Shown here piece after piece: positions 5,951-13,906 of a DNA stretch of 30,475 nt. The notes under the pieces are model-generated. The model searched no databases, had not been told where the DNA came from, and was given only the letters and a program-made list of their open reading frames with translations. The stretch's first letter is position 1; every line of letters starts with the position of its first letter. Origin of the DNA: a virus (lineage: Duplodnaviria; Caudoviricetes); the IMG/VR virus record IMGVR_UViG_3300049042_000218, positions 1-30,475 of that record. The stretch is one strand, 5' to 3'. The position numbers were made by a program, and so were the translations under genes.

Positions 5951-6799
5951 ATGCCGCTCACCTTCGGTGCAGCCACCAGCAACACCGTCAGCCTGCTCGG
6001 CACCAGCTTCGGCAGCACCGGCCAAGCCGGCCTGATCGCCGGATGGTGGCGGCCGACCACGCTGACCGCAGGCCGCTACTGGTGCGCGATGGGTATCAAC
6101 TCGGCCACCGCCAACTACGGCGTCAGGGTCGGGACCACAACCTCGACGTTGCAACTGTCCTCAGCGACCGCCACCACGGTCGGATCATGGACCGCCACCG
6201 CCGACACCACCGTCTTCCCTTCCGGGATCGTCGCTGGCAGCTGGTACTTCATGGCGGCGCTTGTGTCGATCGTGACCGGCCCGACCATCGCCTGGCGTGT
6301 CTGGCTCGGTGACGCCACAACGCCACCAACACCGATGACGATCGTGCAGAACACCGCACCCGCTGGTGCGTTGTCCGCCACCGCCAACCAGGCGCTCGGC
6401 AACCACACTGCCACCGCCGGCACCGCAGCGTTCCAAGGCGACATCGGCCAAGTGTCGATGCTGCAATACACGAGCGGCGTCAACACACCGTTCCCGATCG
6501 CTGCGGCCGGCACCATCACCACCGATGAAGCGTTACTGATCGAGCAGCAATACGTGCGGCCGTTGTGGCTCGGCAACCATCCCGGCCACTTCCCTCGAGA
6601 CGGTGCCACCGCTGGCGATTGGGTCATGTGGGAGAACCGGCTGACCGGCACCTATATCCGCCAACAACTTTCGGCTACGGCAGCGACTGCCATCAGCCGC
6701 ACTGACGGCACGTCGTCAGGCGTGACGGTCGCAGCAACGGAACAGCCACGGATCGTGGACATCTCGGCGAACGTGAGGTTGCCGCTAGTCAGGAGATGA
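5951..6799 (+). CDS. LamG/concanavalin A-like domain protein
   Basis: GWWRP...GSWYFMA...VWLG...FQGDIGQV pattern of LamG-like jelly rolls. Confidence 0.6.
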   Translation: MPLTFGAATSNTVSLLGTSFGSTGQAGLIAGWWRPTTLTAGRYWCAMGINSATANYGVRVGTTTSTLQLSSATATTVGSWTATADTTVFPSGIVAGSWYFMAALVSIVTGPTIAWRVWLGDATTPPTPMTIVQNTAPAGALSATANQALGNHTATAGTAAFQGDIGQVSMLQYTSGVNTPFPIAAAGTITTDEALLIEQQYVRPLWLGNHPGHFPRDGATAGDWVMWENRLTGTYIRQQLSATAATAISRTDGTSSGVTVAATEQPRIVDISANVRLPLVRR

Positions 6800-6802
6800 C
6801 CG

Positions 6803-7369
6803 ATGTCGCTGCTGCTGCTGTTCGGTGGAGTAGCGCCAACCGGTGTCACTGGCACCAGCGCCACCACCAACGCCAACGACACGTCGAGTGCCACCGGCAC
6901 CGTGACGATCGTCGGCAGCTCGGCAACGACGAACGCTGCCGACACATCATCAGCGTCCGGCACTGTCACCAACACCGTCACCGGCACCTCGGCAACAACG
7001 AACGCTGCCGACACCTCGACGGCGTCGGGCACTGTCACCATCGTCGGCACCTCGACGACAACCAATGCCAACGACACGTCGAACGCCACCGGCAAAGTCA
7101 CCATCGTCGGCACCAGCGCCACCACCAACGCCAACGACACCTCGACGGCGTCCGGCGATTCCGGCACACCAGCGCTCACCGATGACGTCAGCCACGGCGG
7201 CCTGCGGCCACGGCAACGACGCCGACCCGAACGACAACTGCCGATCCTCCTGCCACCGGTGTTCGCCTACGGCGACGCCATCAACACCATCGACTTCTCC
7301 ACCAGCAACGGGCTCGTCGACCCGCACAACATCTTCCTCGAGGACGAGGAACTGCTGCTTCTTGTCTAG
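6803..7369 (+). CDS. Thr/Ser-rich repeat protein with hydrophobic termini (MSLLLLF...EDEELLLLV)
   Basis: AGGAG RBS; five 21-23 aa repeats, then a basic RPRQRRR segment and an acidic-hydrophobic C-terminus. Confidence 0.75.
   Translation: MSLLLLFGGVAPTGVTGTSATTNANDTSSATGTVTIVGSSATTNAADTSSASGTVTNTVTGTSATTNAADTSTASGTVTIVGTSTTTNANDTSNATGKVTIVGTSATTNANDTSTASGDSGTPALTDDVSHGGLRPRQRRRPERQLPILLPPVFAYGDAINTIDFSTSNGLVDPHNIFLEDEELLLLV
6845..7160 (+). repeat. Five tandem coding repeats, consensus (V)GTSATTNA(N/A)DTS(S/T)ASGTVT
   Basis: Visible in protein; DNA copy GGCACCAGCGCCACCACCAACGCCAACGACAC occurs near 6851 and 7109. Confidence 0.9.
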
Positions 7370-7377
7370 GAGGCTTC

Positions 7378-8316
7378 ATGCCCAGCATCATCGAACGCGC
7401 TGCCCGCTCCGAGCGCGAGACCCGATCGTTCACCGTTGCCGACCTCGAGTTGCGTGACGGCACCGGAGGCTTCACCTTCGAAGGTGTCGCATCGGTCGTC
7501 AACACCGGCTACCACGTCCGTGACCAGTGGGGTGACTACACCGAGACAATCCTGCCCGGTGCGTTCAACCGCACGTTGAAGCAGAAGGCCGACGTCCGTC
7601 TCCTGGTGAACCATTCCGGCGTTCCGCTTGCCCGCAGCAAGTCCGGCACCCTCAAGCTGACCGCTGATCCGAACCTGCGGGCGACCGCCACGCTCGACCC
7701 GTCGAACCCGACGGTGCAGGAGATCCGGTCGGCCATGAACCGTGGCGACCTCGACCAGATGTCGATCGGGTTCCGTGTCCGCGACGAGGAATGGTCATCG
7801 GACTATTCGCAGCGGTCGATCAAGGAGATCGAACTGTTCGACGTCTCCGTCGTCACCTACCCGGCATCACCAACCACCACCGCCCAACTGCGGTCCTTCG
7901 ATGCGTTCATCGCCGACATCCGTGACGTCGACATGACCCACGACCAGATGCGTCGCGCCGTCCGGGCGTTGAACCGCCGCTTCGCCGATGTCTGGAACGA
8001 GGAAGTCGAATCGTGGCTCGAGCTGGCGCTGAAGGCCCGCTTCGCCACCACGCCGCTGACGATGATCGAGGTCGAAGACTTCAACGACCAGCAGGTCATC
8101 TTCTGCCTCTACGGCACCGAAACCGACGGCTACTTCCAGCTCGGCTACAGCCTCAACTCAGACAACACCGTCACCCTGGACACCGCTGACCCGGTGCAGG
8201 TGAACGAAGTTGTCTCCTACGTTCCGATCCGATCCAACCAGCAGTTCGAGCAGCGTGACCGCGCCGACCGCGAAGCGTTGGACCGCAAGATCGCCGCCCG
8301 ACCCGCCCTGGTCTGA
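7378..8316 (+). CDS. HK97-family prohead protease with C-terminal extra domain
   Basis: FEGVASV, ETILPGAF, LLVNH (catalytic His), QMSIGF (catalytic Ser), LFDVSVVTYPA; AGGAGG RBS. Confidence 0.95.
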   Translation: MPSIIERAARSERETRSFTVADLELRDGTGGFTFEGVASVVNTGYHVRDQWGDYTETILPGAFNRTLKQKADVRLLVNHSGVPLARSKSGTLKLTADPNLRATATLDPSNPTVQEIRSAMNRGDLDQMSIGFRVRDEEWSSDYSQRSIKEIELFDVSVVTYPASPTTTAQLRSFDAFIADIRDVDMTHDQMRRAVRALNRRFADVWNEEVESWLELALKARFATTPLTMIEVEDFNDQQVIFCLYGTETDGYFQLGYSLNSDNTVTLDTADPVQVNEVVSYVPIRSNQQFEQRDRADREALDRKIAARPALV

Positions 8317-8325
8317 CGGCTCCCA

Positions 8326-8393
8326 CATCGAACCCGGAGCGCGCCACCCGGAACCGCACAGCGGTCACCACGGGCGCCGCCACCACGTCGATG
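8326..8393 (+). promoter_or_regulatory. Structured cis-RNA element in capsid leader with duplicated internal loops
   Basis: Nested stems CATCGA/TCGATG, GCGCGCC/GGCGCCGC, ACCGC/GCGGT separated by two identical ACCCGGA/CACCACG loops. Confidence 0.7.
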
Positions 8394-8432
8394 ACCACAC
8401 ACCACAACCCACATCCCGAAAGGACGTGACCC

Positions 8433-9716
8433 ATGGACATTCGTTCCCATGTGATCGCGCTCAACGAGGACCGTGCCCGTGTCGTCGAACAGCTTCGCAG
8501 CGAACTCGACTACACCGCCGGCCGTGAGCGCAGCGCCGAGGAGAGCCAGAAGATCGCCCGCCTCGACGCCCGCATCGACGAGATCGACGCCGAAGTGCGC
8601 GAGTTCGTCGCCCGCGAGACCCGCGAGCAGGAAGCCGCCGCCCTCCGTCAGCAGACGCTGTCGGTGTTCGGTGAGGCCCGCACCGCCCGCAACGACAAGA
8701 CCGAAGCCGACGCCTTCCGCCAGTGGCTGACCCACCGCAACGGCGACTTCGAGATCGACATCCAGCGCGCCATGAAGGAGCGCCAGATGCTGCGCGCCGG
8801 TGCCTCGCCCGAGGAAATCCGTGCCCTCGCCTGGGACGCCACCAGCGGCTCGCTGGTCGTGCCGACCACGATGGCCCGCAGCCTGTTCGACCTCCTCGAG
8901 GCCAACATCGCAGCGTTCCGCATCGGCGCCACCGTGATGAACACCTCGACCGGTGAGAACATGCAGCTGCCGAAGCTGACGACCCACGGCATCGCCACCC
9001 AGGTCAGCGGTCAGGGCACCACCCTTGCCGGTTCCGACCCGGTGATGGGCCGCGTCAACCTCAACACCTACAAGTACGGCCAGCTCGTGCGTGTCTCGAA
9101 CGAACTCGTCACCGACGCAGCGTTCGACATCTCGTCCTGGCTCGGTGGTGACCTCGGCTACAGCCTCGGTCGCGTGATCGACGCCGACCTCGTCGTCGGC
9201 ACCGGCACCAACGAACCGACCGGCATGACCGTGCTGGCTGGCGCTGGCACCAACGCCCCGATCAAGACCGGCGGCTCGCTCATCGCGCCGTCGGTGGAGA
9301 AGTTCATCGACCTGCAGTACTCGGTGGCGGACAGCGTCCGTCAGCGTGGCTCGTGGCTGATGAACGACAGCGTCGCCGGTTCGATCCGCAAGCTGCGTGA
9401 CGGCGCCGGTGGCACCGTCGGTGCCTTCCTGTGGGAGCCGTCGGTGTTCAACGGCATCCAGGGCGGCCAGCCCGACCGGTTCCTCGGCAACCCTGTCTTG
9501 ACCGACACGAACTGCGCCGCTGCCGGCTCCAACGCCATCCTCGCCACGTTCGGTGACTTCTCCGAGTACGTCATCCGCACCGTCGGCAACCCGGTCATCG
9601 AGTCGGACGCCTCGCGCTACTTCGACACCGACGAGACCGGGTTCCGTGGCAAGTGGAGGGTCGGCGGCAACCATCGCCAGGTCGGCTACCTCAACACGCT
9701 CATCCAGAACGTGTGA
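8433..9716 (+). CDS. HK97-fold major capsid protein with N-terminal delta (scaffold) domain
   Basis: GAAAGGA RBS; coiled-coil N-terminus, GSLVVPT, KYGQLVRVSNELVTD, LRKLRDG-like IRKLRDG, FGDFSEY. Confidence 0.97.
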   Translation: MDIRSHVIALNEDRARVVEQLRSELDYTAGRERSAEESQKIARLDARIDEIDAEVREFVARETREQEAAALRQQTLSVFGEARTARNDKTEADAFRQWLTHRNGDFEIDIQRAMKERQMLRAGASPEEIRALAWDATSGSLVVPTTMARSLFDLLEANIAAFRIGATVMNTSTGENMQLPKLTTHGIATQVSGQGTTLAGSDPVMGRVNLNTYKYGQLVRVSNELVTDAAFDISSWLGGDLGYSLGRVIDADLVVGTGTNEPTGMTVLAGAGTNAPIKTGGSLIAPSVEKFIDLQYSVADSVRQRGSWLMNDSVAGSIRKLRDGAGGTVGAFLWEPSVFNGIQGGQPDRFLGNPVLTDTNCAAAGSNAILATFGDFSEYVIRTVGNPVIESDASRYFDTDETGFRGKWRVGGNHRQVGYLNTLIQNV

Positions 9717-9721
9717 CCTTC

Positions 9722-9868
9722 CCAGCCCTCGCGGCTGGACGATCCCCAGGCAGGGGGACGCCCTCGGAAACCTCCTCCAGGGTTTCCGAGGGCAATACCT
9801 GCCACATCCCCAAGCGGCACCGGCCGGCGGCACACGTTGTCGTCGGCCGGTCCCGTTTCACCCCTGCC
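9722..9868 (+). promoter_or_regulatory. Multi-hairpin intergenic RNA structure after capsid gene (attenuator/stability element)
   Basis: Hairpins 9722-9738, 9760-9793 (13 perfect bp) and 9812-9858; GGCAGGGG 9749-9756 can pair with either 9798-9803 or 9861-9868. Confidence 0.6.
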
Positions 9869-9883
9869 CAGGAGAACCAATCA

Positions 9884-10132
9884 ATGCCTGTTCACGAGGT
9901 TCCTCGCGGCCAGCTCGCCCTCGAGCTGCGCCGCATCGCCCGCACCGAACACGTCGTCACCGTCACACAAGACGGCGACATGTTCGTCATCGTCACCGAA
10001 CCCGGTGCACCGATCGAAACACGTCTCGGTGCGGCCACCCACCAAGCCCGTGTCGGCATCGCGTGGGACCGAGACCCGCTGCTGCACAGCTTCATCACCG
10101 ACCACATCGTCATCGACGAGGTGAACCAGTGA
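9884..10132 (+). CDS. Hypothetical protein (82 aa)
   Basis: AGGAGA RBS before ATG 9884; stop overlaps the GTG of the glycosyltransferase. Confidence 0.7.
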   Translation: MPVHEVPRGQLALELRRIARTEHVVTVTQDGDMFVIVTEPGAPIETRLGAATHQARVGIAWDRDPLLHSFITDHIVIDEVNQ

Positions 10133-12036
10133 AGATCCTGCTGCACTCCAACTCGGCCACCGTCAAGACCGGCTACGGCGTCCAGATCGCACTGCTCGCC
10201 GACCGTCTCGCCGACGACGGCCACCAGATCGCCATCTCGGCAACCTACGGCGCACCCGCCGCCACCGGCCTCACCACCTGGACATCACCTCGAGGACACA
10301 AAATCCCGGTGTACCCGTCGTGGTTCCTCGTGTCCGGCGACGACGTCATCTGCGCCCACGCGAAACAGTTCTTCGGCAGCGACGAAGGCTGGATCATCCC
10401 GCTGCTCGACGTCTGGTCGTTGACCACACCGAACCTTGCCGAGTTCAACGTCGCCGCCTGGGCGCCCGTCGATCACGACCCGGTGCCGAACATGGTGCTG
10501 CGGTTCTTCGAACGATCGAACGCCCGCTGCATCGCCATGTCCAAGCACGGCCTCGGCGAGTTCACCACGCACGACCTGACCCCGGCGTACATCCCGCTCG
10601 CAGTCGACACCAAGGTCTACAAGCCGACGTTCACCGCGACGATCGACGGACGCCAGGTGACCGGCCGCGAGTTCCTGCAGATCGACGACCGGGCGTTCGT
10701 GGTCGGCATGGTCGCCATGAACAAAGACCCGAACGATCGCAAAGGTTTCGCCGAAGCGTTCCAAGCGTTCAGCCGGTTCCACAAACAGCACCCGAACTCG
10801 ATCCTGCACATCCACTCGGAGAAGTCCGGCACCGCTGGCGGCGTCAACCTGCCAGAACTGGCTGCGATGGCCGGCATCCCCGAGAAGGCGATCCGCTACA
10901 CGAACCAGTACGCCTACATGATCGGGTTCCCGCCCGAGCTGATGGCCCTGATGTACACGGCGTTCGACGTGCTGCTCGCCCCGTCCAGGGGGGAGGGGTT
11001 CGGTGTGCCGCTCATCGAAGCTCAGGCGTGCGGCGTGCCGGTCATCACGTCGGCGTTCACCGCGCAACAGGAGCTGGTCGGCAACGGCTGGCTCGTGTCC
11101 GGCCAGTTGAACTGGGACGGCCCTTCGCGCTCCTGGTATCAGACACCAAACGTGTTCGAGATTGAACGAGCACTTGAGAAGGCGTACGCAGCCGACCTCG
11201 CCGAGATGCAGGACGACTGCGTCCAGTTCGCCGCCCAGTACGACGCCGACCACGTCTACGCCACCTACTGGCGCCCGTATCTGGCAACGCTCAACCTTGA
11301 GCCGCCAGCGACGAAGCCGATCATGGACGACGTCGCAGTGCTCGTCCCGGCAATGAACCGGCCGCAGAACGTGCAACGGCTCGTCGAGTCGTTCAACCGC
11401 AGCAACGACGGCACCGCCAACCTGTACTACATCCTCGACGAGACCGACGCCGATCAGATCGCAGCCGTCGAACAGGCCGGTGCACGCTGGCTGCCCGCCC
11501 GTCGCGGCACCTCGTACGCCTGCAAGAACAACGAAGGCTTCGACCAGACCGTCGAGTCGTTCGTGTTCCTCGCCGGCGACGACGTCGAGTTCACACCCGG
11601 CTGGATCGACGCAGCCCGCCGCCTGTCCGACCGCTACGACGTGATCGGCACCAACGACAGCGAACCGGGCCGCACCCGCAACCCGCTGGTGGCAGCCGGC
11701 AAACACGCCGACCACTTCTTCGTCCGCCGTTCCCACGTCGTCGAGCAAGGCACCTCGCTCGAGGGGCCGGGCATCCTGTGCCCGGAGGCGTACTACCACT
11801 GGTACTGCGACAAGGAAATGATCCAACTCGCCAAGGCCCGAGGCGTGTTCACACCCTGCCTTGATTCGGTCGTCATCCACCACCATCCCGGCTACGACGG
11901 ACGCGACGACCTGCGAGCCAAGGACGCCACCTACATGCGGGCCGTCGAGTTCTCCGAAATGGACGAGATCGCATTCAAGCGCCGGGCCGGCCTGATCGAA
12001 CAGCACCAGATCGTCAAGAAGGACATCTGGTCGTGA
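10129..12036 (+). CDS. Fused glycosyltransferase: GT4 (GT-B) N-terminal plus GT2-like (GT-A) C-terminal domain
   Basis: Start GTG MKILLHSN...TGYG; PSRGEGFGVPLIEAQACGVPVI (EX7E); second domain VAVLVP...FLAGDDVEF; ORF-track start 9553 is an over-extension. Confidence 0.9.
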   Translation: MKILLHSNSATVKTGYGVQIALLADRLADDGHQIAISATYGAPAATGLTTWTSPRGHKIPVYPSWFLVSGDDVICAHAKQFFGSDEGWIIPLLDVWSLTTPNLAEFNVAAWAPVDHDPVPNMVLRFFERSNARCIAMSKHGLGEFTTHDLTPAYIPLAVDTKVYKPTFTATIDGRQVTGREFLQIDDRAFVVGMVAMNKDPNDRKGFAEAFQAFSRFHKQHPNSILHIHSEKSGTAGGVNLPELAAMAGIPEKAIRYTNQYAYMIGFPPELMALMYTAFDVLLAPSRGEGFGVPLIEAQACGVPVITSAFTAQQELVGNGWLVSGQLNWDGPSRSWYQTPNVFEIERALEKAYAADLAEMQDDCVQFAAQYDADHVYATYWRPYLATLNLEPPATKPIMDDVAVLVPAMNRPQNVQRLVESFNRSNDGTANLYYILDETDADQIAAVEQAGARWLPARRGTSYACKNNEGFDQTVESFVFLAGDDVEFTPGWIDAARRLSDRYDVIGTNDSEPGRTRNPLVAAGKHADHFFVRRSHVVEQGTSLEGPGILCPEAYYHWYCDKEMIQLAKARGVFTPCLDSVVIHHHPGYDGRDDLRAKDATYMRAVEFSEMDEIAFKRRAGLIEQHQIVKKDIWS

Positions 12037-12833
12037 GGCGCCCACTGATCATCGACGTGTTCCCGTTCAACAACGAACTCGACATGCTGCAATGCCGCCT
12101 CGAGGAGATGGCTCCGGCGGTCGACTTCTTCATCGCGATCGAAGCCGACGTCGACCACCAGGACCATCCGAAGCCGTTCCACCTGACCGACAACCTGTCC
12201 CGCTTCGACGCCTGGTCGGACAAGCTGATCGTCATCAGGGCGACCGGGATGCCGACCGCCGCCGACGACCCGGACCCGTGGGCCCGTGAGCTCGCCCAAC
12301 GCGAGTACGCGATGGAAGGGCTCCGCAAGATCAACGACATCGTCACCCTTGCCGATGACGACATCGTCTTGCACGGCGATGTCGACGAGATCTGTCGGGC
12401 CTTGCATGTCCGCAACGTCCGACCTCGAGACCGGTTCGTCACCTTTGAGCAGCGGCTGCACTGTTTCGCAGTCGACTGGCTGCACCCCGACCCGTGGGGT
12501 GGCACCGTCGCCGCCACGTTGAAGGGCTTGGGTTCGCTCGGGCAGTGGCCGTTCCAGAAACTGCGGAACACCCGCAACGCCAACATCCCGATCCGTGACG
12601 CCGGCTGGCACCTGTCCTGGCTTGGCGGCAAGGACGCTGCCCTCGCCAAACTCGGATCGTTCTGCCATCCCGAGATCGCCGACCGCACCCTTGTCGGGCT
12701 GACCTCGGACCTGTACCTGCGCGAAGGGTTCCATGTCGACGGCCGCCGGATGAAACCGGTCGACGTCGACGACACATGGCCGAAGATGATCGCCGAGCGG
12801 CGCTGCCCGGAAGTGTGGTTCCGTCCGCGATGA
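12033..12833 (+). CDS. GT17-family (GnT-III-like) glycosyltransferase
   Basis: IDVFPFNNELDML..RLEE...VDFF...E; W.RE..QR; DDIVLHGDVDEI; AGWHLSWLGG. Confidence 0.85.
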   Translation: MRRPLIIDVFPFNNELDMLQCRLEEMAPAVDFFIAIEADVDHQDHPKPFHLTDNLSRFDAWSDKLIVIRATGMPTAADDPDPWARELAQREYAMEGLRKINDIVTLADDDIVLHGDVDEICRALHVRNVRPRDRFVTFEQRLHCFAVDWLHPDPWGGTVAATLKGLGSLGQWPFQKLRNTRNANIPIRDAGWHLSWLGGKDAALAKLGSFCHPEIADRTLVGLTSDLYLREGFHVDGRRMKPVDVDDTWPKMIAERRCPEVWFRPR

Positions 12834-13906
12834 ACTTCTTCACCGAGAACTGGTTCCACCACGCATCCTGCGACCGGCTCGCCCAGCTCGGCCGACAGGT
12901 CGAACACGTACCCGGCATGATCATCGAGATCGGGTCATGGGAAGGCCGCTCCACCAGCGTCCTGGCGAACGCGATCCGACCCCGGATCGTGCACGCCGTC
13001 GACACCTGGCAGGGTTCGCCCGGCGAGATCTCGTCGGACCTCGCTGCCGAACGTGACGTGTACGCCACGTTCCAACGCAACATGGACGCCCTCACCGGCG
13101 GAAACGTGACCCCGCACAGGTGCGGCTGGCGTGACTTCTTCGTCGACCACACCGAACAGATCGCCCTCGTGTTCATCGACGCCGAACACACCTATCGGGA
13201 AGTGTTCGACACCATCCAGACCGTCCTGCCCTACATGGCGCCCGGTGGTGTCATCTGCGGTGACGACGCACACCACCCGCCCGTAGCGAAAGCAGTGATG
13301 GAACTGTTGCCGAACGACGAGCTGCTGCAAGGCGGCAACGTGTGGTCATGGACCAAGCCGACCCTGCGGCAACAGTACGAACGGCTCTGCGCAACACCGT
13401 CGGACATCTACCTGCACCTGCCACGCATGGTCGAACTGGTCAAGTCCGGCAACTGCACCAAGGTGCTCGAGCTGGGCACCCGCACCGGTGTCTCCACGAT
13501 CGCTTGGCTGCACGCCCTCGAGCAGACCGGCGGCCACCTGTGGTCAGTCGACATCGACACTCAACCGGCGATCGGCAGCCACCCGCACTGGACGTACATC
13601 CAAGGCGACGACATGGATCCGACCGTTCAGGCGCAGCTGCCAGAACCGTTCGACATCGTCTTCCTCGACACGTCGCACCACTACCGGCACACCAAGGCCG
13701 AACTCGACCGCTACCAGCACATGGTGCGACCGGGCGGTCTGATCGTCTGCCACGACACCGAACTTCCAATCCCCGAAGGCGCACCGGCCGGCGATCCGAC
13801 CTACCCGGTGAAACGTGCCATCGAGGAGTTCGTCAGCATCACCGGCTACCGCTGGTTCAACTTCCCCGACTGTTGGGGGCTCGGCATCATCGAGGTGAAA
13901 CCATGA
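12830..13906 (+). CDS. Tandem class I SAM-dependent methyltransferase (two Methyltransf_24-like domains)
   Basis: EIGSWEGRST...VDTW...FIDAEHTY...GGVICGDD and ELGTRTGVST...SVDID...FLDTSH...GGLIVCHD; ATG 12830 coupled to GT17 stop. Confidence 0.88.
   Translation: MNFFTENWFHHASCDRLAQLGRQVEHVPGMIIEIGSWEGRSTSVLANAIRPRIVHAVDTWQGSPGEISSDLAAERDVYATFQRNMDALTGGNVTPHRCGWRDFFVDHTEQIALVFIDAEHTYREVFDTIQTVLPYMAPGGVICGDDAHHPPVAKAVMELLPNDELLQGGNVWSWTKPTLRQQYERLCATPSDIYLHLPRMVELVKSGNCTKVLELGTRTGVSTIAWLHALEQTGGHLWSVDIDTQPAIGSHPHWTYIQGDDMDPTVQAQLPEPFDIVFLDTSHHYRHTKAELDRYQHMVRPGGLIVCHDTELPIPEGAPAGDPTYPVKRAIEEFVSITGYRWFNFPDCWGLGIIEVKP

Follow-up and report, generated by a model that had tools for sequence, protein, structure and literature searches.

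Comparative sequence analysis indicates that the hairpin examined here, which lies between a phage prohead protease gene and its capsid gene, is part of a real, strongly covarying, and modular RNA family in the leaders of HK97-type capsid genes. The window, namely, the whole stretch of DNA analyzed, is a virus record of 30,475 bases with the head-tail gene order of a siphovirus (terminase, portal, protease, capsid, tail genes, and integrase). The hairpin sits in the 116-nt gap from protease to capsid; it begins 9 nt after the protease stop codon and its 3' end is 39 nt from the capsid start codon. The stacked double unit occurs a single time in the whole 30-kb window. The coordinates that the first-pass annotation had assigned to the stems, loop copies, and apical loop were all exact on rechecking, and the features are as follows.

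7378 to 8316, + strand: prohead maturation protease, S78 domain (Pfam PF04586, E 1.8e-33; PHROG 80), with a C-terminal extension
8326 to 8331, + strand: basal stem P1, 5' strand CATCGA, pairing with TCGATG at 8388-8393; its five pairs hold in 96.9% of cells and each shows two-sided changes
8332 to 8338, + strand: outer unit, 5' strand ACCCGGA, family core YCGG at 8334-8337
8339 to 8345, + strand: middle stem P2, 5' strand GCGCGCC, partner at 8373-8380 with one bulge; sets the period of 12-14 nt
8346 to 8352, + strand: inner unit, 5' strand ACCCGGA, core YCGG at 8348-8351
8353 to 8365, + strand: apical stem P3, ACCGC (8353-57) with GCGGT (8361-65) and a 3-nt loop, ACA, the sequence and length of which are free to vary among relatives
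8366 to 8372, + strand: inner unit, 3' strand CACCACG, core CCAC at 8368-8371
8373 to 8380, + strand: middle stem P2, 3' strand GGCGCCGC
8381 to 8387, + strand: outer unit, 3' strand CACCACG, core CCAC at 8383-8386
8388 to 8393, + strand: basal stem P1, 3' strand TCGATG
8394 to 8409, + strand: C/A-rich linker, predicted to be unpaired in the window
8410 to 8428, + strand: weak predicted hairpin (-5.6 kcal/mol) holding the Shine-Dalgarno sequence (about 8419-8424)
8433 to 9716, + strand: HK97-type major capsid protein (Pfam PF05065 at residues 139-413, E 9.2e-44)

The predicted fold of the hairpin has a free energy of -29.2 kcal/mol (z -2.97), and one of 200 shuffles was equally good. Two identical 7x7 internal loops had been described. 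The repeat sequences are indeed exact; however, fully open loops are unlikely, with GG/CC pairs predicted inside each (G8336-C8384 and G8337-C8383 in the outer unit, G8350-C8369 and G8351-C8368 in the inner unit). This pairing likely leaves each unit with two small loops, CC/A (2x1) and A/CA (1x2). The double repeat is only modestly rare on the window alone, as 114 of 5000 intergenic shuffles yielded two different ordered repeated 7-mers. Therefore, the case rests on relatives, and the comparative data remove chance as the origin of the double repeat.

A capsid search returned 26 loci, and inspection of 23 leaders revealed ten with both 7-mers twice, ten of an alternative form (type B, described below), and three with neither in that view. 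L016, at a capsid identity of 72%, has both 7-mers twice on fully changed stems. A loops-only scan of viral contigs gave 44 loci, 30 of which had all four loop strands. By Pfam, the upstream frame at these loci was an S78 protease in 17 of 17 tested and the downstream frame was Phage_capsid in 16 of 19 tested (two of the rest were truncated and one had no match), while no capsid was found among seven frames beside chance pattern matches. A metagenome scan, the pattern of which also fixed two stem bases, enlarged the set and included L345.

In a set of 32 distinct copies, pairing held in 405 of the 416 anchored stem cells, compared with 312 +/- 8.6 for swapped partners (best 347 of 5000); loop invariance in this set is circular because the loops were the search pattern. 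The named structure was paired in 98.2% of cells with two-sided changes at 12 of 18 pairs, a level that none of 500 shuffles reached in a test inflated by kinship among the copies; slid controls gave 32-59%. The nested hairpin accounts for the covariation. Among 750 stem cells from 75 rows (without L312, L345, L501, L513, and L532), there were 27 G-U against 5 A-C combinations, and this excess indicates that the + strand, which is the mRNA strand, is the folded one. Covarying stems and the G-U excess bear out the original claim that differing stems with like loops represent a repeated RNA motif, not a simple DNA duplication. Covariation and loop conservation in relatives had also been set as a test in advance, and both were found: the stems covary and the core is kept.

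The wider family came from a looser scan covering 37 of 64 database parts, at the loci of which the downstream frame was Phage_capsid in 34 of 36 tested. The family unit is YCGG(A) opposite (CA)CCAC; its lasting core is YCGG/CCAC with a 2x1 CC/A loop, stacked twice, and the extra A and G of the window's 7-mers are lineage-specific. All of the loci then collected contained 98 distinct four-part cores, of which 80 had a capsid or protease context as judged with our own profiles (79 capsid, 71 protease, and 70 both). Only one of these 80 cores does not precede a capsid gene. All five loop-flanking pairs held in 72 of the 80, compared with two of the 18 others. The base before YCGG in the outer unit was C (a C.C mismatch) in 48/80 and G (a G-C pair) in 30/80, and the period of units on the 5' arm was 12-13 nt, approximately one helical turn, in 72/80.

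To escape circularity, leaders were also picked by capsid likeness alone and examined with a strict two-unit detector. The two-unit element was present in 52 of 62 leaders at a capsid identity of at least 60%, one of 14 below this value, and none of 760 shuffles; the detector misses copies visible by eye in L633, L639, L649, L660, L713, and L714. In the capsid-picked leaders, variation was seen at the A that follows GG and at the initial C of the 3' strand. Moreover, one inner unit, that of L654, lacks the A/CA loop, and L702 has A-U in place of one G-C of the GG/CC pairs. These variants and those of type B point to the GG/CC register and the 2x1 CC/A loop as the lasting parts, an assignment that rests on few events. 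The symmetric 7x7 register chosen by RNAalifold was dropped because L702, L654, and type B fit the GG/CC register only. The cis-regulatory RNA proposed from the window thus stands as a conserved, cis-acting structure of the mRNA strand that has a repeated loop module and is tied to the capsid start; however, its full 7-mers are lineage-specific and the family core is shorter, and the suggested setting of capsid:protease stoichiometry is a hypothetical role.

The distance from the last CACCA to the capsid start was 38-72 nt in all rows but one. In L012, an extra reading frame separates the protease from the RNA, and the RNA stays beside the capsid start. In some carriers (L016, L030, L172, and L175), translation of the protease ends within or beside the basal stem, and the stop codon is 4-8 nt 5' of the outer core in 8/65 rows; a terminating ribosome could therefore open the hairpin in these carriers. 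The linker of the family is 50% C and 28% A with a mean probability of 0.64 of being unpaired (73 rows). The Shine-Dalgarno hairpin had a family mean of -4.35 kcal/mol (74 rows), compared with -3.58 +/- 0.18 for swapped arms and -3.92 +/- 0.19 for shuffled 5' arms; this mean beat all 200 arm swaps, and arm shuffles came within reach (best -4.48). Folding predictions thus make a weak hairpin over the Shine-Dalgarno sequence possible in the window and many relatives. An unstructured C/A tract followed by the capsid ribosome-binding site (RBS) had been noted 3' of the hairpin: the linker is indeed predicted to be unpaired, but the RBS lies in a weak predicted hairpin with weak family support.

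The number of units varies. L345 has three, the third having been added on both arms; L631 has one (1420-1445, by eye); and the two units of L017 (560-715) seem, by eye, to be split into separate hairpins. Type B consists of GCCGC opposite GCAC, twice, with a period of about 7 nt, and has a CCG/CAC core in common with the main type. It occurs in the window's own capsid clade (L009, L010, L012, L013, L018, L020-L023, L025, L367, L373, L379, and L388). The covariance model R1, which represents the window's subtype, found L345 and L097; type B was not found, its best score being E 0.15. Some close capsid relatives of carriers (L626, L627, L643, L645, and L738) do not have the element, and phage Heather has no protease-capsid gap; therefore, the element is dispensable for HK97-type heads. 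Unrelated structured leaders were observed in close capsid relatives of carriers, one common to L626 and L643 and another to L627 and L628, and the delta N-termini of these four are divergent.

The capsid gene is preceded by two or three GGCAC(U)-loop hairpins in the mycobacteriophages Typha, Minerva, Courthouse, and WXIN and in the G696 prophage L739. These leaders are located as follows.

L604, 1040 to 1110: GGCAC-hairpin leader
L605, 1035 to 1115: GGCAC-hairpin leader
L606, 1035 to 1105: GGCAC-hairpin leader
L609, 970 to 1030: GGCAC-hairpin leader
L739, minus strand, upstream of the capsid: GGCAC-hairpin leader

The capsids of Typha, WXIN, and L739 form one clade, the rows of Minerva and Courthouse being excluded. 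The five members of the GGCAC-type clade have, by eye, a 7-residue insertion in the first delta helix, which counts as one event because they belong to one clade. In the Pontimonas phage phiPsal1, the stretch before the capsid gene (L608:870-950) has ends that we take to resemble those of tmRNA or tRNA.

The element precedes the capsids of two deeply split clades, the branches of which measured 1.46 and 1.76 substitutions per site in a quick tree. Many carrier capsids barely align to that of the window by BLAST (approximately 22% identity, E 0.004 or worse), and the proteases are better conserved across carriers than the capsids (35-60% identity). Relatives of one carrier clade are named from Streptomyces, Nonomuraea, Actinomadura, and allies; a close cultured relative was not found for two further carrier clades. 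The best cultured-phage match of the window's capsid was 29.5%, and no carriers were found among cultured phages, for which blastn gave chance-level matches only. Six cultured phages were inspected: four have a different twin-hairpin leader, one is gapless, and one has an unrelated leader. A related capsid was present in 5 of 301 genomes of the Streptomyces-genus set (the genus of G001), and four leaders were readable: two with the element (L737 and L741), one with GGCAC-loop hairpins (L739), and one with neither. Host copies were not evident above the reversed control, neither in the phylum of G001 (401 genomes; 9 matches against 28, none with a four-part core; single units are undetectable by the pattern) nor in its family (151 genomes; 5 against 16). 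A scan of genome contigs with an overly loose pattern in 9/64 parts gave 120 loci and no capsid leader.

The sequence-fixed loops, one-turn repeat, and variable number of units suggest a protein site. We tentatively propose, by analogy with known operators, that the element is an operator with two sites at which the phage's capsid precursor binds before assembly, and that the delta domain of this precursor would lower capsid translation; this is the best of the explanations considered, at less than even confidence. Capsid residues ~1-138, outside PF05065, align with other HK97-type N-terminal extensions and probably form a delta (scaffold)-like domain, and their scaffold role is assumed by analogy; the delta label for these N-terminal residues is our assumption from HK97. 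The scaffold function of HK97-type heads comes from the delta domain of the capsid precursor. The delta domain of the unassembled precursor would bind the two CC/A loops, and the spacing of the two sites by approximately one helical turn would allow cooperative binding by an oligomer. Binding might then spread over the C/A linker or keep the weak Shine-Dalgarno hairpin shut, blocking initiation at a distance in a manner similar to T4 gp32. Excess capsid subunits would thereby reduce capsid translation, and prohead assembly would remove the repressor.

In favor of a delta-domain reader, we weighed the persistence of the RNA at the capsid start, the layout of the T4 gene 32 operator, the P22 precedent, and a delta N-terminus that is alignable across the deep capsid split (Arg in 59/66). 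Furthermore, two repeated motifs occur within one Streptomyces-genus set, and the GGCAC type tracks one capsid clade across host genera, which argues for a reader on the phage side. According to the portion of the literature available on the T4 gene 32 operator (PMC535899), a 5' fold (a pseudoknot) is followed by a loose tract of more than 40 nt holding the RBS. The element likewise has a folded 5' part and a loose tract of ~40 nt with the RBS of a highly expressed phage gene, and distant control by the element would need the same spreading step. However, gp32 is an ssDNA-binding protein acting on one pseudoknot, whereas the element is a predicted single hairpin with two stacked internal loops before a capsid gene. 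The N-terminus of the P22 scaffold acts in translational autoregulation (bioRxiv 10.1101/2022.12.13.520362, available in part), and this post-transcriptional feedback on a gene with scaffold function parallels a capsid leader. However, the scaffold of P22 is a separate gene, and the accessible part of that source does not describe an RNA structure for the feedback.

Against the delta-domain operator, we weighed the divergence of the capsids and the dispensability of the element, together with several features of the proteins and leaders. No basic stretch was found in the delta region, where net charge is -3 to +1 per 30 residues. Carrier-specific residues were not found in the delta-domain alignments, and the conserved delta residues were equally common in capsids without the motif (Arg 12/14). 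L016 and L017 have identical capsids and different RNAs; on the capsid tree of 19 near relatives, the RNA type changes four times, and 21-26 of 500 shuffles were as low. The hairpin and RBS do not overlap.

The same relatives bear on the reading in which the prohead protease docks on both loops, either tuning capsid translation or being held where the capsid is made such that heads enclose the protease. On the protease tree, the RNA type needs two changes rather than four, and none of 500 shuffles was as low; L016 and L017 differ jointly in protease and RNA; an S78 protease gene is upstream in 71/80 cores; and the better conservation of the proteases across carriers fits a protease reader. However, linkage alone explains this co-inheritance: L016 and L017 are identical from the linker just past the RNA, and a crossover at that point transfers both RNA and protease. 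The protease-tree pattern has exceptions in L009 (type B) and L162 (type A), and a by-eye reading of one alignment revealed no residue distinguishing the carrier proteases from the Typha and Heather proteases. We know of no precedent for an RNA-binding S78 protease and regard protease docking as unlikely. A host factor reading the loops may be slightly better placed, although we still consider it somewhat unlikely. The element would then be a translation enhancer, a ribosome standby site, or a 5' stabilizer of the capsid message after processing, and would lift capsid output over the level of the upstream genes; in HK97, the capsid is needed in far greater numbers than the protease. Loops that are unchanged over two such distant capsid clades fit a slowly evolving host reader, and the fixed distance to the start, loose C/A linker, and weak Shine-Dalgarno hairpin fit a standby site. 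On the other hand, no host copy rose above the chance level in the genomes scanned, prophages of one host genus differ in motif, and two loops of fixed sequence with a constant period are more than a plain stabilizer needs.

The strong predicted hairpins after the capsid gene (about 9750-9865) and a host target, which fits invariance across capsid clades, also lend something to antitermination, in which the nascent hairpin binds host RNA polymerase or a Nus factor as put of HK022 does and carries transcription past these hairpins into the tail genes. The put sites of HK022 are promoter-proximal, however, and no promoter of the sigma-70 type was found in 6700-10300; the spacing of the element is kept relative to the capsid start rather than to any promoter seen, and we consider antitermination very unlikely. 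An action of the repeats as DNA (protein-binding sites or a cruciform) or their neutral duplication is barely credible. Each side carries the 7-mers as direct repeats, and new units are built by duplication, as seen in L345, but the duplication in L345 is matched on both arms, the stems covary with the G-U excess described above (27 against 5 A-C), and the stems are missing from chance pattern matches (all five pairs in 2/18, against 72/80 in context). A broader speculation, in our opinion distinctly doubtful, is that in actinobacterial HK97-type phages an expandable RNA docking array of one to three CC/A loops captures the protease or the earliest capsomers where the capsid is being translated and couples assembly to translation. 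If so, the S78 protease or the delta domain would be a sequence-specific RNA-binding protein.

Regarding novelty, a match to a described RNA family had been sought as a possible objection. Rfam 15, including GP20-a and GP20-b, gave no match at the gathering threshold in the window or in 20 family loci, the best in 8250-8480 being E 4.8. GP20-a (RF02991) and GP20-b (RF03003) are likewise predicted cis-acting RNAs of unknown function located just upstream of phage head genes. Fremin 2023 (PMC10690425), in the portion available, lists 8495 viral candidate RNAs, seven of which precede Phage_capsid or major_cap_HK97 genes by at most 25 bp. One of them, DNAVirus_933 (104 nt, 109 sequences, mostly freshwater), precedes HK97 capsids. 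By description only, DNAVirus_933, _1143, and _3525 fit the element in length and freshwater or soil habitat. Therefore, the element may already be an unnamed candidate of that study, with DNAVirus_933 as the likeliest overlap; the available portion does not treat the repeated-loop anatomy of the element or its range. In the literature searched, which covered few subscription papers, we found no description of the element, including in the accessible part of Weinberg 2017 (PMC5737381), and no RNA control of HK97-type heads with a built-in scaffold.

Several known sites were compared with the unit. A CsrA-type GGA loop was rejected because the GG of the element is paired, which runs against the preference of CsrA. 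Mimicry of the L1 site of 23S rRNA (Rfam RF02541 consensus) failed on loop size. Both combine a GGAG strand with an ACCAC strand; however, the CC/A loop of the element corresponds to a U-A pair in the L1 site, and two bases of the element to a strand of 12 nt there. The continuous helix 77 with a long strand opposite GA is absent from the element, and L702 supports the element's own register. The C-loop, as characterized in the part of bioRxiv 10.1101/2021.12.02.470923 available, has a longer strand starting with C, two non-Watson-Crick pairs, and two triads with flanking pairs. The longer strand of the element starts with C, but its core loop is 2x1 (3x2 with the C.C neighbor), in contrast to the three-base strand in the example given there, and the fit to a C-loop is doubtful.

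The balance of capsid, scaffold, and protease in tailed phages is understood for very few systems. The element may provide a handle on this balance through a 4+4-nt core kept over two deeply split capsid clades, natural one-, two-, and three-unit versions, two interchangeable RNA types before an identical capsid, and copies in Streptomyces-genus prophages (L737 and L741). Further gains would be a recurrent internal-loop motif and an RNA family that has been missing.

Some observations concern the genes around the element. Protease C-terminal tails are kept per capsid clade, with a DREALDRKIAARP-like end in the window's clade (window 8250-8316) and an IAEARALL-like end in the other, as compared in the window and L040, L064, L074, L182, and L185; a conserved tail is expected of a prohead-targeting signal, a role known from HK97. 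The two strong predicted hairpins just 3' of the capsid gene (window 9750-9865) have no obvious U tract and may be terminators or processing sites. Two genes for glycosyltransferases, one GT1/GT4-like and the other of family 17, lie together with a methyltransferase gene in the interval from the capsid to the head-tail adaptor (window 9553-13906). In Minerva and phiPsal1, too, a glycosyltransferase is encoded 3' of the capsid gene, and capsid glycosylation is possible.
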